A stretch of 63,461 nt of DNA, counting the filler, from Asterionella formosa (taxonomy: Eukaryota): NCBI GenBank assembly GCA_002256025.1. It is 19 parts of 19 records of this genome, joined end to end, with 100 filler letters (N's around TTAATTAATTAA, not from the genome) between each part and the next. Parts side by side here need not be neighbours in the genome. Positions count along the whole stretch, not along the records: positions 1 to 20,252 come from NKIB01003415.1; positions 20,353 to 40,578 come from NKIB01003425.1; positions 40,679 to 41,926 come from NKIB01003427.1; positions 42,027 to 43,273 come from NKIB01003428.1; positions 43,374 to 44,620 come from NKIB01003429.1; positions 44,721 to 45,967 come from NKIB01003430.1; positions 46,068 to 47,314 come from NKIB01003431.1; positions 47,415 to 48,662 come from NKIB01003432.1; 11 more parts are not named here. The stretch is one strand, 5' to 3'. Made by a program: the position numbers and the translations under genes. Positions 284 through 55,670 of the stretch are shown one piece after another. The notes beneath the pieces were generated by a model that saw only the letters and a program-made list of their open reading frames with translations, did no database searches and was not told where the DNA came from. Each line of letters opens with the position of its first letter. The first letter of the stretch is position 1.

Positions 284-677
284 CGTCTCTCCGGATCAGG
301 AGGGCGCTCGAAAAATACACACACACTATGGTAGACAAGGCAGAGTTGTATATTTCTGAGAATTCAACTTCTTCCAAAGCGACGACTAACATAGAGTATA
401 CGTCATTTTTTAGAAGTTCGTAGGCTTCGGAACAATTTTTATCGTATTACCGGTAAATTCTGAATTGTGAGCAGCTGCGGATGAGTCACAAATGATTGAT
501 TCCGGCAAAGACACCCAAAGTATCTGTTTGCGATATATTTAGTGACACCATCATGATGACGACGCTGTGCCTGCTTTGGCGTGTACTGTGGTGAAAAATA
601 TTGATGTTTACTTTCTTCGGCTACAACATCGTGTTTTCATTCACTCGTCACAAAACTAATGGCAAACAAAAACCATC

Positions 678-2558
678 ATGATGATGCTTTCTACTGGCCG
701 CCTATTGCGGCGAACATTGACACGATGCAAACTGGCAAGAACACTCTCAGGAGTTACCGACGAACCTCGCGAAAGCATGCCCTTTGACGTTTTGATTGTC
801 GGTGGCGGACCTGCCGGATTGGCGGCGTCGATTCGTCTCAAGCAGCTCTCCATTGAACACGGAAAGGACTTGTCGGTATGCTTGATTGAAAAGGGAAGGT
901 ATGAAGGCCAATAAAGAGGAAGATGCTCTTGTACGCATGCTCTATTGACCGCGACTAACATTGCCTTCACGCTTTCGTCTGGCCATTGTAGTGAAATTGG
1001 TGCACACATCTTGTCGGGCAATGTTTTTGATCCAAAAGCCATGAACGAACTGTTCCCTGCAGGTGACTGGGTCGAACGTTTTGAAAACGAACAAGGCTCC
1101 ATCGCCACACCTGTTACGACAGACGAATTTTCAGTCTTGACTGCAACCTCAAGCTATGCTGTTCCCAATCTGCTCCTTCCCCCGCAACTCGACAACCACG
1201 GCAATTACATTGTATCTTTGGGGCAAATTTGTCGTTGGCTCGGTCAACAAGCCGAATCATTGGGCGTTGAGATCTATCCTGGCTTTGCCGCCTCGGAACT
1301 TCTCTATCGAGAAGATGGATCTGTCAAGGGCGTTGCCACTCGAGACGTCGGACTGGACAAACACGGCATACCGAAAGCCACATTTGAACGTGGCGTTGAA
1401 TTGGTGGCTCGCCAAACGTTTTTGGCAGAAGGTGCAAGGGGTTCGTGCTCGGAAGAACTCATCAAAAAATTCCACTTAAGAGATGGCAAGGCGCCGCAGA
1501 CGTATGCCCTGGGCATTAAGGAGGTGTGGGAGATTCCTGAAGAACATCACAAACCTGGTTTTGTCCAACATACGACAGGCTTTCCTTTGCAATCTTCAAT
1601 CACAGACAAAGTGTTTGGTGGATCCTTTTTATACCATCAAGCTCCCAACTTGATCTTAGTTGGCCTTGTGGTTGGCTTAGACTATGCTAATCCATACTTG
1701 AATCCCTATCAAGAATTTCAAAAGTGGAAGACTCATCCAGCCATCAAAACACATTTTGAAGGTGGAACATGCATTAGTTATGGAGCTCGTGTATTGAATG
1801 AGGGTGGTTACCATTCGATCCCAAAATTAACAGCACCGGGAGCTGCCTTGATTGGTTGCAGTGCTGGATTCCTCAATGCTATTAAAATCAAGGGTAGTCA
1901 CGCCGCCATCAAGTCGGGTATGCTGGCCGCGGAAGCAGCATTTGAAGCGTTGAAAGATGGAGCTGCCGTAGCGGAGACAACGGAATTGGACGAGTCGTTA
2001 CCATCTGTGGAACTAACATGTTACGAAGATTCCGTGAATAAGTCTTGGATCAAGGAGGAACTATTCGAAGTCCGTAATTGCCATGAGGCATTTTTCCGAT
2101 GGGGCGTCGCTGGTGGTCTCATCTATACAGGCTTGACGACGCACATTACCAAGGGCCGCGAACCATGGACTCTGAAGCACACCATTAGGGACGCCGATAC
2201 GACTGGGAAAGCGGCCGATTTCGTGCCTATTTCGTATCCCAGTGCCGATGGAGTTCTGACCTTCGATTTATTAACTAATCTGCAACGGTCTGGTACTTAT
2301 CATGCCGACGATCAGCCGAGTCACCTTCGCATTAAGAGCGAATACAAGGATATTCCCAAAAGCGTATCGCTGCACACTTACGGAGCTCCGGAATCGAGGT
2401 TTTGCCCAGCAGGTGTGTACGAATACGTGGATGAAAAATTGGTGATTAATTCTCAAAATTGCATTCATTGCAAGTGTTGCAGTATCAAGATGCCAAGCGA
2501 ATATATACATTGGACGGTCCCTGAAGGTGGTGGAGGTCCTCAATATCAAGTCATGTAG
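678..2558 (+). CDS. ETFDH: Electron transfer flavoprotein-ubiquinone oxidoreductase, mitochondrial; join(678..898,992..2558)
   Basis: Arg-rich mitochondrial presequence and FAD motif [14 protein letters not shown]. Removing the 93-nt GT..AG intron 899-991 (branch-like GACTAAC near 952) restores [13 protein letters not shown]. Also [18 protein letters not shown] and C-terminal 4Fe-4S ligands FCPAGVYE and CIHCKCC. Confidence 0.97.
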
Positions 2559-5500
2559 TACGATGTGAAGACTTGTCGTGTTGACGATGTTTTTCGAAGA
2601 AGCAACAAATGATTTTAATTTGTGTATCGTGGGTTTTCTGGCGTTTGGGGCAGCTAATTGAGCAATCCTAATGGCGATCCTATTCTTCCTTGTCGCTGTT
2701 GAGTTTGAAAGGTGGACTTAACTACACGGAACTTACCTTTTTTGAAAATAATATTTTCGTCTACTCTACGCTGGAAGCCGTAATTCCTGCATTTTTTAGT
2801 TGACCGGACATAAAGGCAAGATGAGAGTTACGATAATCTCCACTTTCCAGTATGCATATATATATCGGTACTCTCATAGGTTCTCTCCTTGTAGTAGCAA
2901 TTGCTTTATACTGCTGTTTGCTAGGTTCACTGCTAGCTATCTGTATTGAACCTACTCCACCGAAGCTCTTATTTTACATATATGATCTGAACTAAATCTA
3001 GGTGGCTCTCTCAGAATTTCCCCTTTCGATTCTCCAGAACTTTTTTGCCCGCGTTCTCATAAACCATCTCTGTGGTTGGGGAAACCGTTGATAGTGCTGC
3101 ATATTAAGGGGCCAGGATACATTTTGACGTTTTGGACTGTCCATTGGCTGATTGGACAACAATCCAGTCAACAATCCTCGTGATTAGTGAAAGCCAAAAG
3201 GATGGGGTGGGGGTGGCTAATACTGAGGATGGCAACTCCTTTGTATGCTGTATGCATGGCTAGTAGGCGAACAATTTTCTACATTTGTTGGTGAGACGAA
3301 AGACTACCAGGTACCGTAAAGCAAATGAGGACATATGTATGGCTGGATGCATCATGAAACTACATTGGGTAGCCATCGTACATAGCTGCAAGAACAAAAT
3401 AATTCTAGCTACCAATACAACATAAATTTAGCTTAAGTAAAATGTTGTATGTAAATAACATACATATCATATAAATTTTATGTACACATGCATCCGCGAT
3501 CTCGTTGTTGTCATCATTGCATTCATTCATGACGAACATGAAATCGATGTCCTTTGCGCAGCGATGGGCGTGTAATCATTGTTGTATCTTCATTGCAACT
3601 AGCTACTATATGACCTTGTTTGAGACATTCCTGTACAGTTTCAACTCCAGCTTGCCCCCACTATCAAACTCAAGAGTGTGAAACTATTGGTCATGTAGGC
3701 GTGGATCTGTGTGCCCAACATAAAATAGTTCATATATAAACCAAATTGTGTCGTCCCGTGCCGCTTCCTGCTGTGTTTACTAGTAGTGCTACTCATGGCG
3801 GAAAGAAGGCTATTGAAGCGGCCGGCGTGGGAGGATGTTCTATTGTAAGCAATGGAATAATAACAACATGGTGGATGTGATTAGCTATACCATGCCAATC
3901 CAGGCGCAAAATATTATACACCATAGGTTTAGGGCTTATGCTGATACTAGGCCTACAGGGTCTACCCGATGGCCCCAAAATTTGCATCCAACCTAAGTGC
4001 AGACAAGCACACTCCTAAGTAAAAGCTGTCAATTAGCCCTGCATCACATCTAAGTCCTGCAAGGAAGCAGCTTGTGAGGTTGAAGGACTAGCCATATAGC
4101 AGGAAAGCTTTTTACAAATACGGTTTCGGCTCAGTTTATTTACCTCATCATTTTTTTGAGGATTCAATTCGAATTGGCCATGTGAAGGTTTCTATGCCGT
4201 TCAGGCCAATTTTTTACAACCCCCCCCCCACCACAGCTCCTTTCATCAAGTAATTCCTGTGAACATATTAAAAATATAGGTAATTGGTACATGAATGATA
4301 ATACTGTATCCATTTTCCATAAACACCACATCATCAGATCCTTGTTCGAGAATGTGGCATATCAAGAATATAGTATCAATGGCTGTAATTAGTCACAACG
4401 ACTGGGGACTCAACTATTGTCCAATCATATGCAACCTTTTGTGCTTCAAATGTTTGTTGATAAAAAGGTCAATTGAAAGTCACTGTAAAAAGAATCCTAA
4501 CCAGTCCTGTGTTTTCTTAACTAAATTAAAATTGTCTTCATGATGCCAATCGACTGAAACAAAATGAGGGGTTAATCGCTATCATTTTGATTTTCAACTT
4601 CTTCATCTCTTGGCAAATCTTGGCAGCATTCCAGACTTAAGCTTTCTTATGTACTTAATGTTTGGGGCAAAGCATCCCTTCATGATAATACTAGCTAGAT
4701 ACCAGGTACTAGCTATGGCAGTGTCAACCAGCTGTTGGAAGTCAAGGTGTTGGTCAATATCCAAGCTAAAGTTTGGAAAAAATAGGGGAATAGGTATTCA
4801 TAGAAAAAACCATCTGAAAATCGCCCAGAAAAGGAAGACTATAATGCCATTGTAGATGTGAGGCCTTGCTCTGGCTATCAACCTGTTTGCGGCAACAACG
4901 CGTCACTCAATATATTGAACAACAAACCCAGGTTGATCGACATGATCTGTGATAATCTACTAACAAGAACAATAGTAATATAGTGATGTTGATTCCCCAT
5001 TTTCTTATTGTTACTACAACACTACAGGTAAAGCGTTGAAAGCGCTGTATAAAGCAATCCAAAGATAGCTAGCTATGTAAATATATTTGTGAAAGGTTGC
5101 ATTGATACAGTGTTGGATATTGGAAGAAAAAAGGTACAAAAAAGGGACTGGCAGTAATTTTGAAGTGAGGGATGTCATGAGATGAAATGTTTTAACCACA
5201 CTTTCAATCTCAACCCCTTTGTTTGTTAAGCAAAGGTGCATGTTTATAGGATGCTGTTAGCTGCCTTGAAAGAGTAGGGAAAACAAAATATACAAACAAC
5301 GCTGCATCTCAAACCTGCATCTCAAACACGATTCAACTGCTGCGGGTCAAGACTTCCTTTATGCTCCCGCTGCAAGGCATACCAGGTTGTATGCACAGAC
5401 GGACCTGGTCAGAACAGTACGAACTACCGGTACCTTGCAAGTTGCGGTAATTTTTCTGAAACTAAAGATTTAGCTATCTTTATCGCAGATTAAAATGTTA

Positions 5501-6962
5501 GTTTCAGCAAAATGAACGCAACTTGCTTGGTACCAGTGTTGTATTTGAGTCCTCCGGGTCATTCTTGATCCGGGGTATTCGGAATACAAATACTGTAGTA
5601 AGTCACACTTTGTCACATAGCTACGATACCAGGTACCCTTTTTTACCAAATTCAACGAGCACATTATTCGACGTAGTATGAGCACTAAAAGTTCCATGCT
5701 ATGCATGTCTGACCACATTTCTTACGCAGTTAATGATGACTGAGGCGGGACAAGCGAATCATGATTCGTACCAGGAGTACAAATGGTGAAGACGGATTTA
5801 TTGCTCAGTACTTAGGATTTGTTTACAGTTAGTTACCATTACTTATACAGGTATGTGTGAACGGGTATTTTTAAAAGATGCTCTTGCAACTACCGGTGCT
5901 GCATGTAAAAATTGATGTTTCCTTGGACCACAATTGCAAAACGGGCTTTACTCTAATAACGAGCATCGCCCGCCAATGTTGCTTGACTCACGAAAGCAGT
6001 CGTATGTGCAATTGGTATTGTTCTCACTGGTCGATGCCTTGTCGGCGATCGCCGTGCAATGGCGCGGCTTGCTTGTTTGGCTGAGGGCGCCAAGCACCTA
6101 GGTACGACGGTGCAGCTGCTGGCTACACGAAATATTCGCCTACCGTAGTCTACTTTACCGATAGTAATCTAGTTTACATTATCATGAATTATGCAGATAG
6201 TCCAATATGTTCCGTGTGTGTTGGTCAGATATACCGGTATAGGTTGTGCTGCCTAAATGAATTACAGGTATGATGCATGGGCGGAGGGAGGAGAACAAAA
6301 ACGTTGTGAGGTTCACTCAACGACGAATCGGTGCTGTAGACTACTGGGACCAGGTACTCAGTACCAGGTACCAGGGTACCGGGAATGCTTTTTACTGCTT
6401 GCTGGCTTGCTGGTACAAGGGTACCAGTACACTATGGCCCATTAAAGGAACCTTGTACCTACCAGGGTAGCAGGTACCGTGGTACCTGGTACCTGGTTGT
6501 CCTGTATTCCAGGTAACAGGTACCTGGTCCCTGGTAATACTACCAACATAAAGCGACCCCTACATACCTTACCAGTAACTTAAGACTTTTCCACCTGGCT
6601 TCATGACCTCCACATGATCAATCACCTACCGGGACCCAATGGAAGATCATTTTCCTCATGTATCAATACATTTTTAAATATTTCCAAGGTTTTTCTGCGC
6701 GCGCAAGCATTTCTCAATCCCATTAGAAAATTCATTTTACAAAGTTTAACCGCTTATTAACCATTGCATCTACCTGGATTTTTTTGCTAGCCGGACTGAG
6801 TTGTGTGTGTTGTGTGGTCGTGTCATGCTGGTGTTCGTAAAGCTTGATTGAGATCAAATCAATTTTCATTTTTAGAAATTGAAAGGGAGAAGGAGGAATT
6901 GTTACAGGAATTGTCTCAGCTTCTGATAGGTTCAAGTTTTGGCCCCACATTGTTTAGAAGTA

Positions 6963-9042: not shown

Positions 9043-10291
9043 TATTCTCTCCAAACTCAAACTCATTCTCCTTTTCCGGTTGCAGTGATGAAAACAACCT
9101 ATATTAATTAATTAATGGTTTCAAAGTCGTTGAGATTGGAAATTCGTATCTGCCAGCATTGTCATACCAATGTTTTCAATGTCGTTGGGATTGGAAATTT
9201 GAACTGGCATCATCATCATACAAATGACCCGATATAACTATCATAACCTATGTATGTACAGTACATACACATGGTATGTATACTATTCACTGGTGCACTA
9301 TATACTAAATCAACTGTCAAATAATGCATGAAAATAATACATAATACATAGTATACCAGTACTTGCTGGTAAGCAAACAATTTTAAAATCTCATCACCAT
9401 CACGCTTCCATCACTCCCATGTAAAAATGCATCCTTTCTGCAGCATCGATATAAGCAATCAAATCTAAGCTGATAAATAAGTTGTTTCACATCTTTTGCT
9501 ATAATTAATCATGTTTTTGTTTAGTTGTCTTTGTAGTCATTGTACAGCTACTGTGAAAGTGTCAAATCTGCTGATAGAATTGTCGCTTTGAACTGTGAAT
9601 CTATAAATTTCATTAATAAATGCGCTTTCGGCTATTTCAATTTTCGTTGTCAATATTAGAGTTATTACAACTATTCTTTTATGATTGTATTTTCTATATT
9701 GTGCTCAATATATGTACCCAATAGCAAAGCGTCTTTCTCATTTGTATGAAGGTATTTGTTAATTTTGTCATGGTCAATAGTTAGCAAAATATATGAAACA
9801 AGCGCTGAACATATAATGACGAAAGCATATTGCTGCCGGACAGAGAAATCAAGTTACCCATTGTTTACTTCTACTAATGTGTTCTCAATAAATTTATTAC
9901 CTGCCCTGTTGGAAATACATCCTGCTGTTAGCAGTATGCTTTCTGTCGTAAATCCAAATAAATTACATACCGGTATATCAAAAATAGAAAAGAATCGAAT
10001 AATCTAAGCTAAATAATTACACACAAGCACTTGCGAGTGCTACCTCGGGTACCTGCTACCTGGTACCAGGTAGTACATGGTATGGTACCTGGTACTACCA
10101 GATATCTGTGGGAAACTGCTGTGACCCACTAAAAAAATGAGTGACCCACTGTCTGTGTGTGAACAGGAGAAAAACACGGCTTTGACCCCACCAAATGCCG
10201 ATGTGTTGATTTTAAACTACGACCCGAATCCTGAGCATGTTCCATTAGATACCAAGTATAAGGTTATGGCATTTGGTTTGTCCTAAAATAT

Positions 10292-10413: not shown

Positions 10414-11036
10414 AAAACGTGTATCAAAAATTCACTGCCATCATGTCTGCAAGCACGTTTTCCGTATGTCCCGGTGCATACCGTCGGGACGCTGTAGCTA
10501 ACAACCGGTACTTACTACGGTATCTACGGTATGTATGATGGGGTCTACCGGGGGGCAGTCGTATGATTGTGTTCAGTCGACTACGGTACCGGTACGATAC
10601 CTGGTACCAGGTACCGGTTCTACGTACTACGTACTGTATATCTACGTGCGTATGAACAAATTCCTAATAGCAACCCTAGCCCCAACCCTGTACAAATTGC
10701 TACTTACTAGTATATGTACCGACGAATAATACATGCGTACCCAATAGGCGCATTCGATCTGTATTCTTTGTACCTGGTACCTGGTACCCTGGTAGGTACC
10801 GGGGTACCGGTACTCGGAGTATTCTATACCGGTACCTGGTACCTCCTGGCAGGCCGACATAAAATCTGTTGGGCGACCTTTTTCACTTGCTTCGTCACCC
10901 CATCCTCTTCGTTTCCCACGGAGTTCGAGTTTTTCAACGAGGCTTGCTTTTGAGAGGTCACAACGTCCCTCCCTTTTCACTTCAACATTGCCTAGCCTTT
11001 AATGCACCAGAGCGAACTGACGCGAATCGAAACCAA

Positions 11037-15938: not shown

Positions 15939-16919
15939 GATTGACTTACTCTGAGAATGCTTATGTTGGTAAGTGTTCGTGAAAGTGCTCCTCGGATTTC
16001 GTCGCGTCAAAGGAAATGTGAGCCTTTTCACTTCAGCACGGTGCTTATCATAAAAAGGGATGTGAGCAGGATGGGGATCTTGGTACAAATTAAGACAGAA
16101 TGGTCTACATACAGTATAACCAGTTATGAATAACAAAATATATTGATGTGTAAATTGAGGGTACTTACACGTTATCTGTCAAATTCATTAGTATACTAAA
16201 TAACCTATGACGAAAACGTGAGGGAGAGCGACAGGGACGATCGTGGAAAAAAAATGGCGCGAGCGACAAGAATGTTACCGGCTACCTTCTACATACCAGT
16301 GGTAGACTCCGGCAATGCTCCAATCAGGACGCACCACGTTGTATCACATAGAGCTATAACCAAGAGGAATCATACATAGTAATTCCTTTACGCCTGTACC
16401 AGGTACATGGTAAATGGTAATGTAATTATGGTAACTTACAGCAACCTCTACGGTAAATAATGCCTACCGAAACTTGGTACCTGGTACCTGGTGCTATACA
16501 TAGTAAAGCATGGATTGTTATGTAGGCACACGTACAATACTCCCTTGAGTCGAGCCAGTCATACTAAATCACGTGAGCTTCTTTATTTTTCACTCCCCAA
16601 CGATGAACGATCAAGGATTGGCTGATTTGGAGCGAGGCAGTGTGGCAAGTTTAATCATACGCAGTTTTAGTAGGCAACGAATGCCACTGTTTGACCAGAA
16701 AAGTGTATCTTTATGATGTTTGACTTTTAAGGTTTCAAATCATCTACTTCTGCTATTTATCAAGCAAAGGCCATTGAAATTAAATGCTATTCCATTTCAC
16801 AAGTAAAATCAAAACATAAAATGAGAGCCGCCATAATCTTACCACCTTTCTAATTGGTAAAAGCAAGAGATGATTGCATGATACCTTCATGAATTTAACT
16901 CTTTGTATCCATTTCTACA

Positions 16920-18258: not shown

Positions 18259-18795
18259 TTTGTGGAACTACAACGTGCGGTAGTCTGTTGTATGCTATGC
18301 TGTTTCGAGCTTGCTGTGCCACGCTAATATGTGAGGCAACGGTAGGTTATGATTTTGAGAAGGAACAAAGGTACGACGACGGGTGGGAGAATTGTTCAAT
18401 CAAACCACTACCGGTGTGGTAGCTACATAGGCAATAAATAGGCACTTTTAGATCGCCGTTCTGTAGCGACAGTACCAGGTACCGTACATCCTGAAAAAAT
18501 TCTATGGTACCTGGTATGGTGTACCGATGGTGTTCCCAGAGCGCTTTCCGCCTCGTAAATACCTGCATGTTCCGGGATTGTTGCAATTTGCCTCTTCAGA
18601 TTCATCACTACTTATGTATGGGATCATCTGATAACATCCTCGTCCCTTCTCACACATAAGATATCCACACTACAGGCAGTCATTTTTGTAACGACGCACG
18701 TGCGCATATATTTGGTACGTGACTACCAGGTGCTCGAGTAACCTACTAACTACCTGGTACCTGGACCAGGACTCGAGTACAGGTACCACTTAAAA

Positions 18796-20352: not shown

Positions 20353-22041
20353 GATATCCATTATTTTCGTCATGGTCAAGTCTGAGACGATATCATGGCT
20401 CATGCACCCATATTCTCCAGCAGTTCTAAACAACTACAATGTAGTGTTTTATAAATAGAAACAAATCGCAACATCGAGGCTAAATGATTATGTACTAGCA
20501 TCTACAAGGGCTACTTCAGGTACCCTGAGCATATCATATATCCCAGCCATGCATAGTAAGTGATATGTGATACTACTTTGCATGATAGCTATGATTTCAA
20601 AAACAGCAGTACCCCGGTAGGCTGTTGGATCAGGCGTAATTATTACTGTCTGTAACCAAGTATATAATTATAGCATTATGTATATTCATAGTATTGGCAA
20701 GGCTATCAGGGGGAATGGTTATGTCTTTTCATGTATACTTCATAGCATAAGGGTCATTTGCAAGAAGTTCTAGTCATTGTTAGCAAATTCTAGTCATAGT
20801 CAGCCAGCAGGTTTAAATGTAGAAAAAGGTGATTCCTATTTGTATTCCAAAGCTAGAAGACGGTTTGCTGAATTGTTCCATCAGTCAGCAAATCGAAGTC
20901 ATGTTCAGAGACTCATTCTGCAAATCATCATCGGTCGCTCAATTAGTCTAGGGTAATGTTTTTTCTAAATTACATGAAGTATATTCTTTCCATCAAAAGC
21001 TGGCCTATCTCGTCTGGCAGGCATGGGACAAAGCATTGGGAGTGAGTCGAAACTGATGAAATCGATCAATGAGAATTTTAGCACAATAGCTTGATTGATT
21101 GATGCTGTGCTGACACTATCGACGAACAAAGTAACGGATCTGCAATTCTGTAGAAACTACCTTTACTCGGAGGAGTCAAACAAACACCTACTAACTCAAT
21201 GGGTCATGGCAGTTTTTTACTGGCACCAGTTACCAACTACCGTAAGCTGGTATCCTTACGATACGATATGGTCACAAACATGATAGCACTAGTATGTAAC
21301 TTTTTGTCGTTTCATGGTGGTCTGACTGGTGGTGTTGTTCAAACCAGAAAAAAGTAATCCACTGTACCACCAGTACACATCAAAGCTCCTATTACTTGGT
21401 AGTAAGTACAATACCCTGTAACTAAATAGGGGATGCATTTTGTCCGACTCCTGCCGACAATACGGCCATACGTTTGATTTATGTAGCAGACCCATCCCAT
21501 TACGTTTGACGTCCTCAGCCTGTTCGTTATGTCACACTGTTATCAATCGGGTCGTTCGTTTTTAATTAAAGACATTTATATGTACATACATTAATATTAA
21601 GACAAAGGTCGGCAGGCTACACATTGTGACCGTTGGTATCCTTCCAACAGATTGGATGTTCTACCATAATAGTACTACCTGGTAGCAGGTGCCAGGGTAC
21701 CAGGAACAGTGAGCAAGAATTATACATAGGCACTTCTATACTAAGTATCGCTTCCTACATCGGTACCGGTACTATGCTACTGGTACCTCTCTATGTGATG
21801 ACAACTTTATACGTCGCATCCGTGGTTCAAACCTGCTGCCGAGCCACTTTTAAAAAAAATCCCCAAAAGTCATCGTTTATATTTTTGTTCCCTTCCCTCC
21901 AAGGAAAATCATATCGATGTTCCACATTCTTTCTACTAATAGAAGTCACCTTGAAAATTGCATCACAGTCTATAAAATCCACTGCATCTCACTCCGAGGT
22001 GCAATACAGCACAATACAATAGCAAATAGAAGGAGGAAAGA

Positions 22042-24523: not shown

Positions 24524-24886
24524 TCGTTTGTGTGTTGTGTGTGAGTGTGTATGCGTAGTATCTGAATGCGACAATGGCAGATGATCGAGAGGAATAATGG
24601 TGTGTTTTGTGTGAAATACCGGTAGTCTAATAAAACGAAAAAAAAATATACATACACGTATTGCGATGATGATAAATACTACCAGTACCGGAATGTTACT
24701 ACGATCAGATCCGTACGTAATGTGAAACAAGAAAAGCAAAGAAAGGACGACTGATGTGCTGCAACAGCTGCAAAATAGTACACGAATAATCCGCTGTACG
24801 TTTATTGATACCTCCAATATGAGCTATTTAAATTTATATTCATACTTACTACATGTACTGTGGGATGTTATCTTGGGAATTTTTAT

Positions 24887-25092
24887 CCCCTTGCTTTCTC
24901 CTCCTGCTTGAATACTAGATGGTATTCACAAAAACAAGATCGCGTTGGGAATCCTTCTCCATTTGCTGTTGAGCGAGCAAGGGTCGACTCAGCCCCTTGC
25001 TTTCTCCTCCTGCTTGCTTACTGGTATTCACAAAAACAAGATCGCGTTGGGAATCCTCCACCAGTTGCTGTTGAGCGAGCAAGGTTCGACTC
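24887..25092. repeat. Tandem duplication of an approximately 100-bp unit in the BRO1/TRM10 divergent intergenic region
   Basis: ccccttgctttctcctcctgcttg...ggtattcacaaaaacaagatcgcgttgggaatcct...gctgttgagcgagcaagg.tcgactc occurs twice. Confidence 0.85.
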
Positions 25093-25692
25093 GGCCGATC
25101 AAGGCAGGTACCAGTACCGGTACCTGCTGATGAGTCGTGCTAACCGTCGATTAAATTCAATATGGTATTCTTTTATTTACATGCCGGTGGTATTTACTGT
25201 GCATGCACTGATTCAATCATACGGTAAATTCATATCTTACGCAAATAGGAAGGCCATTCAAGTAGCTACAGCTATGGTACCATGTACCTGGTAATACTGT
25301 GTACCGGTATATGTAATACATAGACCACCAGGAAACGATACCCATAGTAAATTTCTCAATTATCGGACATTTCAAGTCGCTCTACTGGCATCAACTAAAT
25401 ATAAATTTTATAATAATTACTACTTTTAAAGTCTGTCTAAATACCGGTATACTGCTTCAGCTGTCGTATACTAAACAATGGGCATGGCTGTGATCGGCAA
25501 CTCATCATCAGTCGCCACCGATGCTAGTATAGCGGATCAATCGATCCCTTCTGTTTCTCATTTTCGTCAAGCAGCACCAAGCTAAGGCATTGGGAGAACC
25601 AACAATCCAAAGGGTAATTAATTGAAACTCTGCCAGTAACAGTAGTAAAAGCGGCTTTCTCGTTCTTCTCAACGAACAACAACACAATTATA

Positions 25693-28989: not shown

Positions 28990-30222
28990 TTCGATGTGTA
29001 TCGATGTGTCAAGGTTTGGGACATTCAGTACCTGGTACCTGGTACAATGGTGCAACAATGATGGAAGCTGGGCACATTATACAATGTTGTTGTCCCACGC
29101 ACATTCATCGTTCGCGTTCATCATCATACATATTTCTGTTGAACGCACGGAGTGGCGAACTACCGGTATGTATCAGGAATCAATTTTTGAATTTATGAAA
29201 ATTTTCGAGGTCAAATATATATACCGGTACGGTACCAGTATTCCTACCATTTTTATAAATTTAAATATAGTTAGAGAGATTGAATACAAAAATGCTATAA
29301 ATTTATATACAACCATATAATTATAAGCGATGACAATATTCATGTACCGGTATATTGTATGACCGCATATGAGCTTATTGCACCTATTTTACCCAAGCAA
29401 CACATTTGTCCACCATGCTATGTGTATACCGGTGTACCGGTAGCGACACAACAATCCTTGATTCCAGAACAAAATGCACCAAAAAATTACCTGTGTGCTG
29501 TGGCAGCCGGTCACTGCCTAATAGGACTCTCATTTATACACACAGTACAATCAATTCACATTGCCCTCTATGTAGTATTTGGGTGTCCCTTGGCCTAATG
29601 CATTCCTATATTAATACCCAGTCAGTACAGGAGCCTGTTTACCACTATTGGGAAAGTCTGATTGCAAAGTACATGGCTGGCTGGTGACCAACTTTGACTA
29701 CCCAGCAAAACTTAACAGACTAAAAAACATTGATAATGAGGGAAAATAGACACTATTACTGATCCTGTGCCATACCCAAGAACCCTTCCATCTCTACATG
29801 AAATCCAACAATTTCCTGTAGGATGCTATATTCCTAGCTAGAAGGATTGCAACCCAACAAAAGTCTCTACCTTCTTAATTGAGTTTAAAAATGGTGAAGC
29901 AAAAAGCGCCAGCATATATACTTGCATTTCTATGGATGTGATGAAAAGGCAAACGAGCTTTTAGCAAAGAATTATGAATGTTGACACAAATGTATAACTA
30001 TGCATTTATCATGATTTTGTTTTCTGTTGATCTACAATCTTGCCAAGGGTATGTTAATCAGGATTCCCAGCAGTGTAATGGCTGATACTGCAAGGCTGAT
30101 ACCTATGTCTTATTTGATACCAAATGCCAGTGAATGAATGTATTGATGACAGTAAATGGATTGAGGAGGAGAGTAAAGGGTGCTAATGGCTTGGACAGCG
30201 TTAATGGGGATATTTGCGGATC

Positions 30223-32022: not shown

Positions 32023-32702
32023 AATGCTATCATTCAATGATATGAGAAGATGATGTGATGAAATTTGCAAAACAGCAGTTCACGAGGTTGGAACGTCTAA
32101 AGTCGAGAAATTATGAGCTGATCATCAAGCAGCTTTGCCGGGCGATTTGTAGTCCGTATTTGCAACTCTTCGAGGTGTTCTCAATGTTTTATTTCATTCG
32201 CAAAAGTGGCATGGACGCTCGTTCATTGTTGGTACAGCAACAAAAGCAAAAGCGAATACCTTGCTTTATGTGTGACAACTGAATGCCGGACCTTTCTATT
32301 CTTGACTGCATTGTTCTTCGATATCATCTTTGCCATACCATATACCAAAAATATAAGATTAAAAGCGAATGCGTTGACACCGGTATCAATGCACATTGGT
32401 AGGAGCGATGTAGGTTTGGGAGAAGAGTCGTGGAGGGCGTGAGAAGTACCTCAGCGAACTCCCATCATGCCGAGGGTTCGTTTTTTCTTATTCGTGACAT
32501 CAGAGCGAAAACTCATTGATTTGACATTCAGGGCACCGATAGCTGTGGTAAAGGTAGCTATAGAGACAGGACGGCCACTGTTGGGGTATGACGCCACAGG
32601 GAACAGAACCATCACGCTCATACTAATCCCAAGGTGCCACAATTTAAAGAAAAATGATTGTCAAGAATAAAATGCATACCGGTAAAATCGATACTCCAGA
32701 TA

Positions 32703-40578: not shown

Positions 40579-42297
40579 NNNNNNNNNNNNNNNNNNNNNN
40601 NNNNNNNNNNNNNNNNNNNNNNTTAATTAATTAANNNNNNNNNNNNNNNNNNNNNNNNNNNNNNNNNNNNNNNNNNNNTTCTGAAGATACAAAATATATG
40701 GATAACATACCTGGTGTATTGTGAATATGTCTGGAATGGCATCATGATGCTGAGTGTGTTGACCTCAGCTAATGAATAGTACGTATGGTATCTGGGACCA
40801 GGTACTGGTATACAAGGTCTACTCAGGGCTACTATGATACATACTACCAGGGCTAGTACCAGGGGAGTACCTGTTACCTGGTACCTTGTACCTTGGGTCT
40901 TTTGACGTTGCACTCAGACATACTAACAAATAGCTATACTGTATGGTACCACCAGGTACTCCTGGCTGGTCGGTACTTGGTACCAGGTCATTGTTACAAG
41001 TGTGAGACTGTAGGTTTGCCCTACCAGTATTTTCATCTTTCCCTTCTTGTTACAATAGGAATTATTTCGTTTGTACTGAGAAACTGTACTCATTTCTAGG
41101 TTCATACTGTGGAACTGTAGGTTTGCACTACCAGCATTGCTTTTCCGTATTCCCCTTATTACAATAGAATATGGCGTTCGTACTGTGAATATATTAAGAG
41201 TACCTTTGGCTGTGTACTCTCCTTCTTGTCATACCGATATTTTTTTAAGGTCACACTTGTAGCATCAAAAATTTTCCCGACGAAGTAAGACTGCGCAAGG
41301 TTTTTTCATGTAGATAGTAGGTTCTGTTGGTACAAAGATGAAGTCATGGCTGCGCCAGGATTTTGGACCCTCTGAATTCATAAAGACAACATTTAACCAG
41401 CACCACTGTGCACAATATATGTTTTCAACATGGGGACGACCCTTAAAAGCAGCATCCCCTTCTAGCTTTTCAGCGTCTCACTATTAACAAATACTACATC
41501 AGCCAGCCACCAAGAACTCACATATTGTTTGTTGAAACAATAGAAGGTGGAATGACACAACATTGAGATCGTAAGCAATCGATGCTTTTAAGCAAGGTAA
41601 GATTTATTTGCTTGCTATTTTTGCTATTATATCACCAAGCGAGGGATAACTCATGATATGTCATGCTTTTGTTTTCAACATTCATTTGACATTTGAACAG
41701 GCATTTTCAGAAAAGCAGTGTTCTTTGGAAAGTAGGAGTGATAGCAGATGAAATGACACAATATGGAGACCCGCAATGGAGGCCTTCAAGGTGAGCTTTA
41801 TCTTCAGTTTTCATAATTGTAACAGCAAAGCGAGCGAGAAATCACATGGTTCTGTTATTGTTCTCTACATTTATTTTACATTTTAGCCGTTCATTTCATA
41901 ACAGGAGCATCTTTTTTAATGCATCANNNNNNNNNNNNNNNNNNNNNNNNNNNNNNNNNNNNNNNNNNNNTTAATTAATTAANNNNNNNNNNNNNNNNNN
42001 NNNNNNNNNNNNNNNNNNNNNNNNNNAGTAGGTGAACAAGCAAGGAATCTGCTGGACTGAAGATATATGTGTTAGCCATATCACAGGATTTACTGAAATC
42101 AATAAACAAGCTTCCCTGAGCGTCAATTGATCATATCTTTGCTGTAAGACTCCAAATGTTGACCTGGCTTGTAAGGATACACAAAGAAGTTTGAATCTTG
42201 ATGTTTAGTATGTTGTTATCCTTCATCAATTGGACCACTGGAACTTGAGAGGACATCAACAATATTAATTCTAATTGGACTCTTTTTGAATTCAAAG

Positions 42298-42494
42298 TGA
42301 AGTATCTAACTAGAAGTAGTAGTATTTGTTGAATATATGAGCTTATTTGTTAATCCTTGTGTGTAACTCGTTCTCCAAGTCGACACCAAAGTATACAATG
42401 AGGGTTAGTCGAGTTCTCTCATTATTGAGTTCTTATACATACATGATATAACACTAACCCTATATACATCTGTATTGATGCGCAAGATCGCTCA
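42298..42494 (-). repeat. Gypsy-type LTR (197 bp), probable 5' LTR
   Basis: Nearly identical to 51873-52069, with TGA...TCA ends. The adjoining 42027-42195 recurs at 57912-58081, consistent with a multicopy internal region. Confidence 0.85.
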
Positions 42495-43373
42495 CCAGGT
42501 ACCTGGTTGGTACCCAGTCTAAACAGTATCGGTATATCGCTACATAATTTTTTTGTCGAAGGTGCTACCGGGACTCCGTTCACTTTACCAGTGCACAACA
42601 TAGCTACGACTATGTGTAACGGTACCTGGTACCAGGTACCCAGTCTACCCTGTATTCAAGTATATGTACATCGCGAGGTTTGTCGAAGGTGCTAGTTAAC
42701 TACCAGTGCAGAACATAGCTACAACTATGTGTATGGCAACAAAAGGTTGCGCTGATGAGAGTTGATTATTTTTTTGGTACGTTCGTATTACTTGTAAAAA
42801 TCAACCCAGGTTGTATTTTTCTGTAGGCCTCAAGTATCGTTCTACTGCGGATGGTAAAATACCTTGACGGTATTTTTCCGTACTTGATCACGAGAAAATA
42901 CAGTATTGTACAACAAGGAAAAAATCAACCCGGTTGCATTGACGGTTGATTTTGTACTCCCTTTTTGGTTGAAAAATCAACTCTGATTAGTCGTAGAAAG
43001 GCCGGGATGTGCGTGATGATGCATAAAAATATGCACATGAAGCAAGATGGTGGTACCAGGCATAGGTCGGTGATTACTTACTGGGTTGGCAGTATACTGC
43101 AGTATTGAATAAGAACTCCCCGGGATTTGCTGGATCAGTATACCAGTATACTGTTTCGGTGGTTTCGAAAAACCATACTGTTCAGCCATTGGCTGCAGTA
43201 TACTGGTATATAACTGCAGGCCTAAAAAATACTTTTGCAGGCTCGCAGTATACTGGCATCGTAGATACTCTGCNNNNNNNNNNNNNNNNNNNNNNNNNNN
43301 NNNNNNNNNNNNNNNNNTTAATTAATTAANNNNNNNNNNNNNNNNNNNNNNNNNNNNNNNNNNNNNNNNNNNN

Positions 43374-44618: not shown

Positions 44619-44720
44619 CCNNNNNNNNNNNNNNNNNNNNNNNNNNNNNNNNNNNNNNNNNNNNTTAATTAATTAANNNNNNNNNNNNNNNNNNNNNNNN
44701 NNNNNNNNNNNNNNNNNNNN

Positions 44721-47314: not shown

Positions 47315-47416
47315 NNNNNNNNNNNNNNNNNNNNNNNNNNNNNNNNNNNNNNNNNNNNTTAATTAATTAANNNNNNNNNNNNNNNNNNNNNNNNNNNNNN
47401 NNNNNNNNNNNNNNAT

Positions 47417-48947: not shown

Positions 48948-50105
48948 TCATTATGGTTATATTTAGGAGGATCAACTAGTATTTATTATTCTAATTACGG
49001 AACTGTTATGTTTTGATTATCAATAAGTAGGGTATCTTTTTGTTAAACTGTTTGTTGAAATTTACTTTTACACTCTTCTTTATGGATGTTTCCCTGATTA
49101 TGATACATACATTCTGAGCGATGCTTGTTTTGTAAACTCGTTCATTTTGCATACAGAAGGATCGATCATCATGGATATGGAGATGAATAGCACACCGTCA
49201 CCATCTGGGGATAGCCGGAGTAAAACAAGTCCATATATAAAATGTATTCGCAACAGCAACAAATCAGACATGATTCCTCGGAGAAAGTGATGAGTGAGTA
49301 CCATGTACTGGTACCAGGTACCTGTCGTATCCCCGTCGTCTTGGTCTACAGTATTAGGGGTTTATTATAAATAGAGGAGGATCAGAACAGCTGGATATGT
49401 TCCGATCCTGAGAATTTGAGAAAAAGGATTATGTATGCACTATTTACTTATAGAAGTAGAATTACTCTACAGGAAGAGAGGAATGGATTGACCATTGGAG
49501 ATCATTTCCATTTTTCACAGTTTATATCATAATTTTAGTTTACGTTTTACATTTTAACCTTTATTATCCGGTATTGCCACTGAGAATATCGTCACTGTTT
49601 AAGACGGGTTTTGGTTAAGAAGGCTAGCCAGTCCATTTTCCCTCCACTACATAATATATTAGGAGAAAGTTATGGTGATCACGTTTTTACTATTTACATA
49701 GCAAAATACTATGGCCCATATTTCGATTCATGACGTAAGTTTGCAATATATTAGCTTTTTTGATGAAAATGTAACTTCGTCAAAGCATAGAATTTCTGGC
49801 ACTGGATTCGATTTCAGGGATGAACACAATTGAGGAAATGGTAAGTTGTCCAAAATCATGATGTCATAACTTCGGCAAGACCACTTCGGCAAGACCATCA
49901 TCATCGTTGTAACTGTTGATTGTTATTTGCACTTACGTCCTGTCGTTGCTCTTGTAAACACAGCGGATGATGCAATGTGGAGGAGGAACGGCAGGGGAGA
50001 CGCCGNNNNNNNNNNNNNNNNNNNNNNNNNNNNNNNNNNNNNNNNNNNNTTAATTAATTAANNNNNNNNNNNNNNNNNNNNNNNNNNNNNNNNNNNNNNN
50101 NNNNN

Positions 50106-50288
50106 CACATTGCTAGGCATACCTGCGCTACAACTCTTTTAAACAGGGGTGTTTCTATTGATATTGTTTCTAAATATCTAGGACATACCAGTACCAAACC
50201 AACGAGGATATATGCAAAAATGCAAGATGAAACTATGAAAAAGGAAATCTTAAGGGCGTTTGAAAAAGGAAATAAAAACAGCATTTAA
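50106..50288 (+). CDS. Tyrosine recombinase/integrase C-terminus (Bacteroidota-like, partial; not in the ORF track)
   Basis: HIARHTCATTLLNRGVSIDIVSKYLGHTSTKPTRIYAK contains HxxRH, LGH and the catalytic Tyr. Confidence 0.9.
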   Translation, partial: HIARHTCATTLLNRGVSIDIVSKYLGHTSTKPTRIYAKMQDETMKKEILRAFEKGNKNSI

Positions 50289-50463
50289 GTACTTGATTAC
50301 CAAGTGAAATTTGATTTCATAAATTTGCTGCAATATTTTACATTAAAATTTTATTCAACAAGTTTAAAATGATAATGAATTGTGAATCCAATACAATAAT
50401 TTATAATAGATTTTAATTTTTTAAATTTTCTTCCCAAAACCAAGCCAACAGGTAATTAAGTAA

Positions 50464-51255: not shown

Positions 51256-51451
51256 TCGGAGTAGTAAGCGAGCAACAGAATGCCATCTGTTAATTTATTA
51301 TATGATACCATAAATTTTCTAATGGCACGGACCAACAAGTAGATGACAAACNNNNNNNNNNNNNNNNNNNNNNNNNNNNNNNNNNNNNNNNNNNNTTAAT
51401 TAATTAANNNNNNNNNNNNNNNNNNNNNNNNNNNNNNNNNNNNNNNNNNNN

Positions 51452-51756
51452 CCAGTACGAGGTACCAGGTACCCCTGGTAGAATTTCTTGGACAATACCA
51501 TGGCATACTGCAGGGTTCCATCGGTCCGTTGGTAGAATATTCTACCAAAGTACTACTGGGTAGAATTTTTGCCTTTCTTTATACCATATTTTCACCACGG
51601 TCAAGCAAGGGAGGAATACCGGACAGTATTGACCTGTCCAGAGTAGAACACTACCGGAGCCCTACAGAAAAATACTACGTTGGTAGAATTTCGTCAATAA
51701 TGTGCCAGTATTGACAATTAATTCTACCCCCAATACTACCATTTTTTGTCGTAGTG
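51452..51756. mobile_element. CACTA/EnSpm-type transposon terminus
   Basis: Ends TTTTTTGTCGTAGTG (reverse complement CACTACGACAAAAAA), with repeated subterminal GGTAGAAT motifs in both orientations (about 51477, 51531, 51559, 51682, 51721). Confidence 0.65.
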
Positions 51757-51872
51757 AAAGCTAGTGCACTAGTTAACTATCATGACGCACGTACAAAGCA
51801 TGCACTATGTGGGAGTGGGCGGTGCCACCTTTGCTGGTACCAGGTACCAGGTACCTGGTACCTGGTACCTGG

Positions 51873-52698
51873 TGAAGTATCTAACTAGAAGTAGTAGTAT
51901 TTGTTGAATATATGAGCTTATTTGTTAATCCTTGTGTGTAACTCGTTCTCCAAGTCGACACCAAACTATACAATGAGGGTTAGTCGAGTTCTCTCATTAT
52001 TGAGTTCTTATACATACATGATATAACACTAACCCTATATACATCTGTATTGATGCGCAAGATCGCTCACTCTCCCACACCAAGGGAAAACCTTTTACCT
52101 TTGAAAAGGTTTGATGTAATGGATATTAATTCAGTCCGTAGTATGCATAGTTTGTTGAAAAGTAACTGGACCATTGGCATATACTTGAATAAATAGAATA
52201 AGGACCTCGTCCATGGTTATCCAAGGTAGTAGGATTATCCGATAGGATTAAAACCTCATCAACAACCTTGTAATCGCAAGAACGACGACGGAAAGTATCA
52301 CAACGTAGTCATTTGTCAATTATCACTTATCGACATTGATATCCCAATATCAATTACATATCTATAATCAAATCATGTTGTAAAACCCATGTTCCTGGTG
52401 AAAATACACAATGTACTATAAATAGTAGCTCGAGCTGCATATGATGCAGCAAACTGGTATCCACAATATTCTGAACTTGAAATTCCTTGATTGGAGGATG
52501 AGCCTTTAACATGACTTGTACATAGGCTTTTAATGTGTATGAAAGGAATACCAGTAAATTGACCTCCATTGTCATGTATACAACCTTCTGGATGGAGATA
52601 TCCGTCCAACCAATCAGTTTTTAAATTTCATCGCAATATATTCTGATGTCTTATTATTGATATGTGAAATTTCTGGTAAATTGGTGACTGTGTTAACT
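51873..52698 (-). mobile_element. Gypsy LTR retrotransposon 3' end: decayed integrase, PPT and 3' LTR (51873-52069)
   Basis: Integrase fragments TNLPEISHINNKTSEYIA, CIHDNGGQFTG, AASYAARAT and QVYANGPVT...INIHYIKPF. PPT GTGTGGGAGAG (52070-52080) abuts the LTR start TGAGCG. Confidence 0.85.
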
Positions 52699-53862
52699 NN
52701 NNNNNNNNNNNNNNNNNNNNNNNNNNNNNNNNNNNNNNNNNNTTAATTAATTAANNNNNNNNNNNNNNNNNNNNNNNNNNNNNNNNNNNNNNNNNNNNGT
52801 GAATGATTTAGTCGTTAGCATGCCTTCTGAGGAGGTGGCAGGTTTGATTCCTGAACTCTCCACCTGTCTTTTTGATGAAGTACTAGTTCTAGGCAAGTGC
52901 TGGTGTCGGGGCTGACAACAGACAGCAGGTCTAAGGTCTTCTGGGCCACAGTACAACTTCACAACCTCCACAATTGTCAAGTTCTTAAACAAAAGCAGCT
53001 TTAAATTTTAAATAATATTTTAGAGCAGGTGAGTTTACTTTCACATGTAGCTATATTACTCAGTATGAAAAAGTATATTTTCGATGAGGCAAAAAATCCT
53101 CAATAATGTTGAAACCTAATTTTTTAGCCGCAATCCATCCTAAAATTATGCGATCTTGTAATCTTACTATATAATTGTTGAGCTTCAAGAAGCAAGTAAC
53201 TCAATTTTTCGGACAGCCGATGACGAGGAGTAACAGTGTACAGGGAAGGTCCGGTAATCGAGATTTTATACCTTAATTAGGTAATCGTTTTCAAAGTAAT
53301 AACCGTGTTTTACCGGACCTTCCAAGGTATCCTAATTGTACCGGTATGGACGTCGGAAAACCTACGTACGACGAACCTTTCCATTATCAGTGCGTAGAAC
53401 GTATCTGTTTTTATGTACCCCTGGCACCGTAATAGCATTTCGAAGCGATCTACCGGTGTCTAGTCTCATGTTTACTCCCAGGTACCGGTACACTGGTACT
53501 GGTATTTGACTTGGATTCGGCTGACGTATCAATGTTCTGCTATCAAATGCATCAGGTAGACTGCCGGTAATCTTACCGGAGTACCAGGGTAGGTTGGCTA
53601 CAAGTGTATGTATAATACATACCGGCATGCTTCTTCGCTCTTCTATCCGATGCGTCCTTTTGCTTTGCTTGATTTCCGTCGTCGTCATGATGATTCTATT
53701 CATTTGATGTAACCAAACCATATTAGTATTCACGTATCATACCAGGTACCGGTACATACTCAATATTTCCTTACATTCTGAGTGAATCTTTAACATTTCG
53801 ATCATCTTTGTCGGTTGGGTACCTGGTACTGTATCCGAAAAGATACTAACCAATCTCTCACA

Positions 53863-54618: not shown

Positions 54619-55390
54619 CTAATCAGTCTGAAGGACACATGATTGAGAGACAGGGGACCAATTCTGCTGCACCAACCATAGCTTATTGGAAAATTCCAAA
54701 AATTGTAGTATGCAAAGGCCTGAAAGTCCACATGAACATCCCCAAAGTCCCAAGCGCACTTGTCAGCATTCTCATACCCATTTGCATCATACCAAGCCTC
54801 TTTTCCAGAATCATCAACATAAGGATCTGTGACTGCTTCAGTTAGTTCATGTGCAAACACACTCAACATGGCATCAACGGCCAAATTATTGTTAGGGGAT
54901 GAGCCAAACCAATTCCAAAATGAACCACATCTAGAAAACAAGCAATATTCCGAAGCTATTCCCAACATTGAATACTGGACTCTGATATTATTCTTATTTT
55001 CATTGGTTGAACCATGATAACCACAGTAAGTGGTGCAAAAACTATTTTTTGATGCATCCATGGATTCCTTGACATTGTCGGATGGAAGAACAATATAGAT
55101 TGCATTAGTATCTGCAGGAAAAGTGCCCGAGTTAATGTTTCCAATGACGATTTTGGAAATGTTGTTGGGCCCCAAATTGAACCCACGACTTCCCTTGTCA
55201 GTGATGGTTTGCTTCACCTTGACTGTTCCATTGACCATGACCTTTTCAGAGTTCTGATCTTTTTGAAAGTAGTATTGTTTGGTTATACCGTCGTACCAAC
55301 TTGATGTTCCAATTCCATTTGCAAAAATTTCGATCAACTACATCTCCTCGTTTTCCCAATACCCGTAGTAAATCAAATAAAGATCAACAT
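54619..55390 (-). pseudogene. PHI-1/EXORDIUM-family (phosphate-induced protein 1) pseudogene
   Basis: YLIYYGYW, FCTTYCGYHG, SPNNNLAVDAMLSVFAHELTEAVTDP and WYDANGYENADKC. In-frame TAG at 55338-55340; a frameshift near 54700 hides the terminal WLVQQNW...C motif. Confidence 0.82.
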
Positions 55391-55670
55391 NNNNNNNNNN
55401 NNNNNNNNNNNNNNNNNNNNNNNNNNNNNNNNNNTTAATTAATTAANNNNNNNNNNNNNNNNNNNNNNNNNNNNNNNNNNNNNNNNNNNNCAATTTTTTT
55501 ACGTGATTATTATTAATCAAAATCAACACTGGTGGAATTATGTCTACTGATGAGGATGGTACCAGGTAGTATTGTTTGCCAAATATGTGCCGAACAAGGT
55601 CCATTATTTTAGCTACCTGTTATTCTTATTTTTCTCTCGCCAACACAGCACTGCAACGACAGTAAATATC

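Follow-up and report, generated by a model that had tools for sequence, protein, structure and literature searches.

In the 63,461-nt stretch of Asterionella formosa DNA analysed here (assembly GCA_002256025.1), hereafter the window, short degenerate arrays of the palindrome GGTACC, whose copies are joined by nothing, by A or by T, form a strong and real pattern in non-coding DNA close to genes, and their bias towards the 5' side of genes is supported on a thin sample. A 102-bp hairpin miniature inverted-repeat transposable element (MITE) has its ends inside such arrays; this arrangement, together with the grammar, the distribution and the decay spectrum of the units, is observed directly. Taking into account this grammar, the existence of isolated units and their decay, insertional scars fit better than either a binding site under selection or a hairpin microsatellite alone. 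We tentatively favour the reading that a TA-targeting cut-and-paste transposon family has left the units behind as scars of its excision and preferentially re-inserts at them, the units being tolerated in promoter DNA. This family would be Tc1/mariner- or Stowaway-like, with ends of the form 5'-CC(T/A)...(A/T)GG-3'.

It has to be noted that the window is a composite, a fact left unsaid by an earlier reading of this DNA made from its sequence alone (the sequence-only reading). Its two long stretches, 1-20252 and 20353-40578, are accompanied by 17 pieces that are 1243-1248 bp in length, with joins between the 19 segments of the form N44-TTAATTAATTAA-N44. Units are counted throughout as TACC(N)GGTA or GGTACC, of which there are 122 in the window.

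Arrays of GGTACC units and their position relative to genes

GGTACC occurs 65 times in the window, against 7.13 +/- 2.59 in 100 dinucleotide shuffles, none of which reaches 65. The octamer TACCGGTA is found 23 times (0.37 expected) and TACCWGGTA 34 times (0.28 expected), and TACCSGGTA is absent from the window, with 0.13 expected. When palindromes are ranked against a second-order background the GGTACC family heads every list, and it also supplies all the top 7-mers of the two long contigs, for example ACCGGTA, with 45 occurrences versus 3.9 expected. Contigs from elsewhere, seen in three RNA runs and one independent DNA run, join or break exactly at arrays: loose ends of the DNA contigs gather at 10598 (20) and at 5436 (16), and contig joints are seen at 5460>18784 and 10070>18816. 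An assembly artefact is ruled out by the presence of the same arrays in contigs of these independent DNA and RNA runs. Thus, the proposal of the sequence-only reading that GGTACC arrays exist above chance is borne out by the shuffles, and every cluster that it named holds units, although the one at 448 is a single TACCGGTA and 10505-10584 and 40768-40870 contain degenerate forms only. Its list of clusters left out those at 3305, 4700, 5425-5637 and 9968, in the spacers between the ETF-QO and TPR genes and between the TPR and CDPK genes.

Eukaryotic genes interrupted by GT..AG introns are present on the long stretches, as judged from Pfam and from spliced contigs of the RNA runs; these genes encode ETF-QO, a TPR protein, a CDPK, a bacterial-type glucokinase, a BRO1-domain protein and an LRR protein, and a copia-like RVT_2 fragment is also present (Pfam). 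Among the best 120 of 8000 scored ETF-QO relatives, those at 65-70% identity that bear names are all diatoms, and closer ones stand at 74% and, at most, at 85-86% identity. The glucokinase matches bacterial-type glucokinase clusters only in a comparison with protein clusters. Sequencing runs containing the stretch come from freshwater and lake samples of 13 studies. Some of the short pieces look bacterial by composition and content, such as one of GC 0.65 with an Orn/DAP decarboxylase and another with an OmpR-type regulator.

With respect to these genes the units are distributed very unevenly. On the two long contigs, 4 units fall in 16,519 bp of genic DNA (0.24 per kb) and 78 in the 15.4 kb of the eleven gene-proximal spacers, reaching 3.5-8.3 per kb in spacers longer than 700 bp; a transposon-rich tract at 33001-40578 has a single unit in 7.6 kb (0.13 per kb). 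Multi-unit clusters on the long contigs fall in gene-proximal spacers in 16 of 17 cases. At least two units lie within 750 bp in 8 of 11 gene 5' flanks versus 1 of 10 3' flanks (Fisher p 0.0075), a comparison in which just 4 of the 10 3' flanks are full length, one of these four having an array; at least one unit is found within the same distance in all 11 5' flanks. Of the 18 clusters in the four tandem spacers, 16 occupy the half closer to the start of the downstream gene, the events not being independent. Three convergent spacers, 882 bp in total, contain one unit, and none is found in introns (625 bp) or in the 3' untranslated regions covered by RNA-run contigs (946 bp). Transcript ends were judged only where such contigs give cover, and a contig cannot reveal the true start; measured from the ATG, units lie 40-730 bp upstream. 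Four bacterial-looking pieces (43374-44620, 50106-51351, 58182-59426 and 62217-63461) have no units, and a fifth (46068-47314) has one lone GGTACC.

Most of what the sequence-only reading had said about this distribution holds. Its scarcity in coding sequence and absence of arrays from bacterial contigs are confirmed by the counts above, the 5' and 3' flanks are unequal (with few full-length 3' flanks), and the equal density in transposon interiors that it had named as fatal to its proposal was not seen. A lineage-typical, non-coding array biased to the gene 5' side is likewise supported. Its statement that arrays mark nearly every host gene is to be reduced to 8 of 11 genes, the number with at least two units.

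This distribution would also be well explained by the strongest rival of the scar reading, in which TACCGGTA/GGTACC would be bound by a dimeric transcription or chromatin factor, perhaps one common to stramenopiles, and the homotypic arrays near promoters would be kept for its recruitment. We consider it possible, although somewhat unlikely. In its favour are the 5' bias of flanks and tandem-spacer clusters, seen in a small sample, the position of the units shortly before the ATG, their near absence from the transposon-rich tract, and the fact that TACCGGTA is M94 in promoters of Phytophthora infestans, where it is rated high-confidence on computational criteria (PMC3597505).

Unit grammar, decay and candidate origins

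Between TACC and GGTA, the joint is empty in 23 cases, T in 19 and A in 15, and a single C or G never occurs. Successive CC(W)GG are separated by TA in 18 of 19 cases; over the window, CCGG is flanked by TA in 41 and 34 of 112 cases on its two sides, and CCWGG in 59 and 50 of 146. Of 12 pairs of adjacent joints, 7 share their letter and 5 are mixed. Fourteen of the 57 TACC(W)GGTA units are isolated, and the palindromy of their flanks is at control level (38 of 140 symmetric positions; mean 2.71 versus 2.60 of 10; p 0.41). Lying in non-palindromic DNA, the isolated units therefore look like discrete 6-7-bp insertions at TA, and not like centres of grown palindromes. For a binding site, a half-site spacing that varies by one base, and by A or T only, is not easily accounted for, and overlapping tandem sites 6-7 bp apart would be odd for a dimer.

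The decay of the units points in the same direction. One-mismatch forms of TACCGGTA number 50 (about 11.3 expected), beside the 23 perfect copies, and 19 of these 50 are the CpG-transition products TACCAGTA or TACTGGTA. Since perfect and one-step decayed copies are about equally common, the exact copies seem freshly made and not kept by selection; the spectrum seems to reflect a steady input of exact copies and their neutral erosion, unlike that of a well-conserved site. This abundance of decayed copies, with its CpG mutation spectrum, is a further difficulty for the binding-site reading, as is the existence of elements that end in units, which it does not predict.

Such an element is the MITE at 5431..5532, TA/CCTTGCAAGTTGCG...CGCAACTTGCTTGG/TA (slashes mark element boundaries), which lies inside units (TACCGGTACC to its left and GGTACC to its right) and whose ends read TA/CCT...TGG/TA. 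It has terminal inverted repeats, with arms at 5426-5472 and 5491-5537 of 47 nt and 81% complementary, its DNA fold reaches -30.4 kcal/mol (z -7.4), and the hairpin continues into the flanking units. The window contains one copy. In DNA run X6, 16 contigs diverge at the left edge of the MITE, their consensus having the end ...CAGGTACC; contig depth summed over the MITE bin is 578.6 versus about 4-7 in genic bins, a figure that is not a copy number. A scan of metagenomes with the MITE ends gave 10 loci, 9 of them chance matches in unrelated DNA and one a true copy (L112, 92% identical), which begins after GGTA/CC beside 11 units and whose right end is TGG/GA; a further copy, in run X9, has the right end TGG/TAAAA. 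Taken together, TA stands beside CC or GG on either side of the window copy, on the left of L112 and on the right of the X9 copy, and also in the 16-contig consensus of X6. Scans of viral contigs gave no loci for the array and one chance locus for the MITE end, lacking any match to the window. Other repeated elements also end exactly in units, among them a 199-bp repeat (42297-42495 and 51872-52070) with an array on the right of one copy and on the left of the other. Thus, a lack of any link between the arrays and mobile elements, as the sequence-only reading implied, is not supported in that form. A search for inverted ends of the kind TA + CC... returned 17 pairs, and all but the MITE and one pair in a cluster of the palindrome CAGTATACTG are arrays or TACCGGTA pairing together.

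Taking the MITE as a guide, TA+CC..GG+TA equals a putative target duplicate plus the end bases CCT and, as reverse complement, CCA. The transposases of Sleeping Beauty and mariner are described as cutting at positions 3 nt within the element; the donor DNA then carries 3' overhangs of 3 nt and, once its ends have been joined, a footprint, and integration takes place at TA (PMC7827188). In an analogous manner, the diatom element would insert at TA, duplicating it, and on excision the donor flanks would retain the first 2-3 bases of each element end. The donor would thus keep TA-CCT and TA-CCA, and pairing of the terminal T and A with fill-in would give TACCTGGTA, or TACCAGGTA in the other orientation; two bases retained per end would give TACCGGTA. 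Re-insertion at either TA of a scar, followed by excision, would add 6 or 7 bp, yielding GGTACC joined by nothing, A or T, and slippage or hairpin copying may extend the arrays. Scars would accumulate in accessible, gene-proximal non-coding DNA through insertion preference there together with tolerance and selection against coding hits, and point mutation, mainly CpG transitions, would wear them down. TA duplication, this excision chemistry, a re-insertion preference and a transposase are what we infer. In this model a scar would be TA + end bases + TA, which accounts for the invariant TA, for a joint that can be empty, A or T but not C or G, for the absence of any order among the A and T joints, and for the isolated units; the arrays follow if later insertions favour the TAs of earlier scars. 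The difference between two paralogous repeat copies, one with an array (9950-10140) and the other with a lone GGTACC (20420-20600), has also been counted for it.

Several observations weigh against the scar reading. Few element ends support a TA duplication: the right end of L112 is followed by GA, the palindromic flanks of the window copy fit a 2-bp TA, a 4-bp GTAC or a 6-bp GGTACC duplication alike, and three more run-contig junctions were found via an array match and are hence biased. The two copies of the 199-bp repeat are each flanked by an array on a single side. The five-base CCWGG scar is not a textbook product of 3-nt overhangs, the one-sided scar of the Mos1 kind, TACCATA, is not enriched (13 versus 12.1 expected), and neither are the 3+3 or one-sided scars TACCATGGTA (0 in the window) and TACCTAGGTA. 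Among 45 open reading frames (ORFs) of the window, Pfam shows no Tc1/mariner-type transposase with matching ends, the only transposon-type matches being DDE_Tnp_4 (PIF/Harbinger) and the RVT_2 fragment. The five perfect units at 51836-51869 would need five hits at one spot or, probably, slippage. The 5' bias suits the binding-site reading equally, TACCGGTA being a predicted promoter motif in P. infestans (PMC3597505), and the evidence base is one 63-kb composite window. Against that reading, in turn, it has to be said that the main text of a P. infestans binding survey has CCGG, GTAC, GGTA and TACC 0 times each (PMC11267843), and that in the accessible text of the motif study M94 is not shown among the six motifs tested (PMC3597505).

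It could also be argued that the arrays are a self-complementary microsatellite, grown by slippage and hairpin-primed copying in open promoter DNA with neither a mobile element nor a function. Tandem Repeats Finder (TRF) does report period-7 arrays of 2-8.6 copies with 71-100% match, all seven folds of arrays form hairpins beyond shuffles (z -2.0 to -7.4), irregular units are common to both arms in some hairpins (6460-6540 and 18473-18516), and the same heptamer makes slippage arrays in many bacteria. We nevertheless judge this explanation unlikely, given that slippage cannot seed 14 isolated units in non-palindromic DNA, that it predicts same-letter runs of joints (bacterial arrays have 12% mixed) and not 5 mixed pairs in 12, that a joint which is never C or G is left unexplained, and that just one exact array of three or more copies exists in the window.

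Similarly, foldback-like non-autonomous elements, with the arrays as terminal or sub-terminal inverted repeats around a variable loop and bare arrays as loop-less or broken forms, would account for pairs of sub-arrays that flank inserts of 16-160 nt, for the extension of the MITE hairpin into its flanking units and for repeats that end in units. This is improbable: when the units are masked, proximity to units (within 40 bp) at both ends is seen in only 2 of the 38 off-diagonal self-matches, and since the masked flanks of different arrays are unrelated, the arrays are not pieces of one element. The sequence-only reading had denied that they are fragments of one transposon or satellite consensus, and in this it is upheld. 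Moreover, any two arrays are mutual inverted repeats by construction, and foldback elements would explain neither isolated 8-mers nor the strict joint grammar. Finally, targets of DNA modification at GTAC, CCWGG or CCGG, all palindromes within units, are very improbable as an explanation: the CpG-transition excess in decayed copies would suit methylated CCGG, but CpG transitions are the commonest change even without methylation, and the origin of the arrays is left unexplained.

If the units are indeed scars, one transposon family has visibly rewritten the DNA before most genes, the repeat recording its activity; they would show in concrete terms how mobile DNA can give rise to promoter microsatellites, and would mark accessible DNA in a group for which regulatory maps are few. 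If they are binding sites, they would reveal a new general diatom promoter factor whose site is also present in oomycete promoters. A combination of both is doubtful, but can be envisaged: an element family homing to its own scars may have written a layer of TA-CC(W)GG-TA upstream of most genes in a diatom lineage, since co-opted as a general promoter element that is read by a stramenopile-shared, perhaps transposase-derived, factor. In that case the Phytophthora motifs of the form TA-NN-N'N'-TA (TACCGGTA and TACATGTA) would share this origin. Under either reading, the arrays break short-read contigs and therefore affect the assembly and annotation of such genomes.

Features along the window

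On the first long stretch, the single TACCGGTA at 448..455 lies in a divergent spacer of 392 bp that separates a minus-strand gene (ATG at about 285) from the ETF-QO gene (ATG 678). A copy of TACCAGGTACC follows at 3305..3315, 747 bp past the ETF-QO stop, then an isolated TACCAGGTA at 4700..4708 and, beyond the MITE, a second TACCAGGTACC at 5627..5637. Upstream of the TPR gene, the tract 6232..6536, which is 350-650 bp away from the first TPR base covered by RNA contigs (6886), comprises TACCGGTA (6232) and a zone of degenerate arrays (6349-6536); the part at 6460-6540 folds as a single long imperfect hairpin (z -5.9).

The spacer between the TPR and CDPK genes is partly repeated. At 9628-9668, a contig from X11, a poly(A) RNA run, terminates in this repeated part (at 9668), carries a loose A tail, and may represent a polyadenylated repeat transcript or an unannotated gene end. 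The TACCGGTA and the array (10048-10094) at 9968..10094 are within the repeated element whose paralog lies at 20420..20600 on the plus strand; the latter, about 72-77% identical to 9950-10140, has one GGTACC (20519) in place of the array, followed by transition-worn remnants. Two sub-arrays (10585-10615 and 10771-10843) make up 10585..10843, upstream of the CDPK gene (ATG 11037), and stop 105 bp short of the first base (10948) of the longest spliced RNA-run contig.

Units at 16397..16488 are placed between the 5' end of a minus-strand gene (14670-16178) and the 3' end of the glucokinase gene. The 44-nt hairpin TACCAGGTACCGTA...TATGGTACCTGGTA at 18473..18516 belongs to the glucokinase 5' leader, because it is inside a spliced RNA-run contig that reaches 18642 (ATG 18258). 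In the same leader, at 18434-18439, RNA-run contigs of X9 and X8 have insertions of 1, 11 and 2 bases which the window and X11 lack; since the insertions are in X9 and X8 contigs only, strains differ at this place. Past the last glucokinase base covered by RNA-run contigs, units occupy 18751..18787, and a repeated element starts at 18784, within the last GGTACC.

On the second long stretch, units at 21676..21787 lie 255-366 bp upstream of the ATG (22042) of a plus-strand gene, and those at 24617..25449 (24617, 25107-25124, 25276-25309 and 25442) are in the divergent spacer between the BRO1 gene and a plus-strand gene. This spacer also contains, at 24887-25096 and just before the units 25107-25124, a tandem duplication of a 102-bp unit (89% match) whose copies show no unit-sized difference. 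The sequence TACCGGTATTTCA (23285-23297) and its near reverse complement (24612-24624) bracket the BRO1 gene, 1340 bp apart, which may be chance. Upstream of a minus-strand gene (ATG 28989), the tract 28961..29442 has mostly separate TACCGGTA units 70-130 bp apart, and a single TACCGGTA at 32677..32684 lies 655 bp upstream of the ATG of the LRR gene (32022). The transposon-rich DNA (32697-36793 and 37161-38229, and 45036-45505 on a short piece) has internal repeats and a 98-nt palindrome (36386-36482) and is nearly free of units; it has a copy on another piece, 93% identical over 482 bp.

The 1.25-kb pieces add a degenerate array zone at 40780..40984 and the first copy of the 199-bp repeat at 42297..42495 (plus strand), directly followed by CAGGTACCTGG... 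and by arrays at 42498..42640 with a repeated module of about 110 bp between them. The sequence GGTACCAGGTACC is found at 49310..49322 and again at 51461..51473, at the start of a piece. The longest perfect array, at 51836..51869, has five GGTACC with joints A, A, T and T, folds as a hairpin (z -6.3), and directly precedes the second copy of the 199-bp repeat at 51872..52070 (plus strand), 99.5% identical to the first. Further units are located at 53339..53828, upstream of a plus-strand ORF whose first residue, M, is at about 53863, and GGTACCAGGTA is located at 55558..55568. The TACCGGTA at 56606..56613 is part of a 16-bp palindrome, TAGCTACCGGTAGCTA.

Other palindromes and elements were also noted. 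The 10-bp palindrome CAGTATACTG has four exact copies within 170 bp (43090-43255) and none elsewhere in the window, forming a second palindromic cluster, of another kind, on a piece where GGTACC arrays are present as well. TAGCTA is the next most enriched palindrome, with 34 occurrences versus 8.7 expected in the window; on the long contigs, 18 of 25 copies are in gene-proximal spacers, and several copies stand beside units, as in the palindrome TAGCTACCGGTAGCTA at 56602-56617. Its copies include those at 4692, 4710, 5066-5070, 56602 and 56612. Two PIF/Harbinger-type transposase fragments (DDE_Tnp_4), at 47363-48647 and 59952-60827, are on separate 1.25-kb pieces with about 76% DNA identity, and both pieces are devoid of GGTACC units. 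An Rfam scan of the whole window gave no families.

Comparison with known systems

In the literature, the array strings were found only in primers, GGTACC appeared together with diatoms only as a cloning site, and searches on diatom MITEs, core promoters and mariner-like elements found nothing on such arrays. The same GGTACCW heptamer forms intergenic arrays in bacteria, as in the short tandemly repeated repetitive (STRR) heptamers of cyanobacteria. A scan of one genome per prokaryote species for three joined units gave at least 110 loci, all bacterial heptamer arrays, with no diatom DNA among them and no overlap with the window beyond the array itself. These arrays (L001-L110) are short and intergenic, belong to bacterial genomes and metagenome-assembled genomes (MAGs) of many phyla, several MAGs having 3-8 loci, and are often beside other heptamer arrays; that of L063 lies between convergent ORFs. 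In 80 of these bacterial loci with flanks (533 kb), exact repeats of at least three copies number 102 at period 7, and 1, 4, 0 and 3 at periods 5, 6, 8 and 9. In the bacterial arrays 195 of 222 pairs of joints have the same letter and 27 are mixed, and because same-letter joints dominate, the bacterial arrays bear the signature of slippage, from which the diatom arrays differ.

In flies, GA-repeat elements recruit GAGA factor. Promoter microsatellites of the (GA)n/GAGA type resemble the diatom arrays as short, degenerate tandem motifs of variable length near many unrelated promoters, but the diatom unit is palindromic and any factor that binds it is hypothetical. Drosophila Foldback elements have inverted termini of short tandem sub-repeats around a variable middle, as some diatom arrays might be described; however, the diatom arms are tens and not hundreds of bases long, the inserts are unrelated and no flanking duplication is seen. 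A DNA transposon family that inserts in one kind of simple repeat has been described in Medicago, where MuTAnT, a group of Mutator-like elements, targets TA microsatellites (PMC4486113). MuTAnT belongs to another superfamily and uses another repeat, which is its target only and not a product of the element.

The closest likeness of the unit itself is found in another stramenopile. Among 103 motifs over-represented in P. infestans promoters (Roy et al. 2013, PMC3597505), M94 is the identical 8-bp palindrome TACCGGTA, listed beside M93, TACATGTA, for which 4150 promoter occurrences are given, and both are of the form TA-NN-N'N'-TA (PMC3597505). As presented there, they are single predicted sites tied to life stages, and not arrays with joints of 0 or 1 base (PMC3597505). 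In the diatom window, TACATGTA is not enriched (2 versus 2.35 expected). It may be speculated that M93 and M94 could likewise be scars.

With respect to mobile elements, the 102-bp MITE resembles Stowaway-type MITEs in its terminal inverted repeats, its hairpin, the TA by both ends of the window copy, the signs of many copies and its position near a gene; unlike in these elements, its ends are not known to share anything with the Stowaway consensus and one copy lacks TA on one side. Footprints of Tc1/mariner elements such as Sleeping Beauty and mariner are like the proposed diatom scars in the TA target and duplication and in the short sequence left between two TAs (PMC7827188). They are unlike the diatom units in that the inner part of the latter has 4-5 bases and not 3, that no transposase of this kind is found in the window, and that the diatom scars would be tandem-stacked and concentrated before genes. 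The form of these footprints, TA + end bases + TA, matches both TACCGGTA and TACC(A/T)GGTA, and the alternative of A or T at the centre is known from the Sleeping Beauty scar as well.

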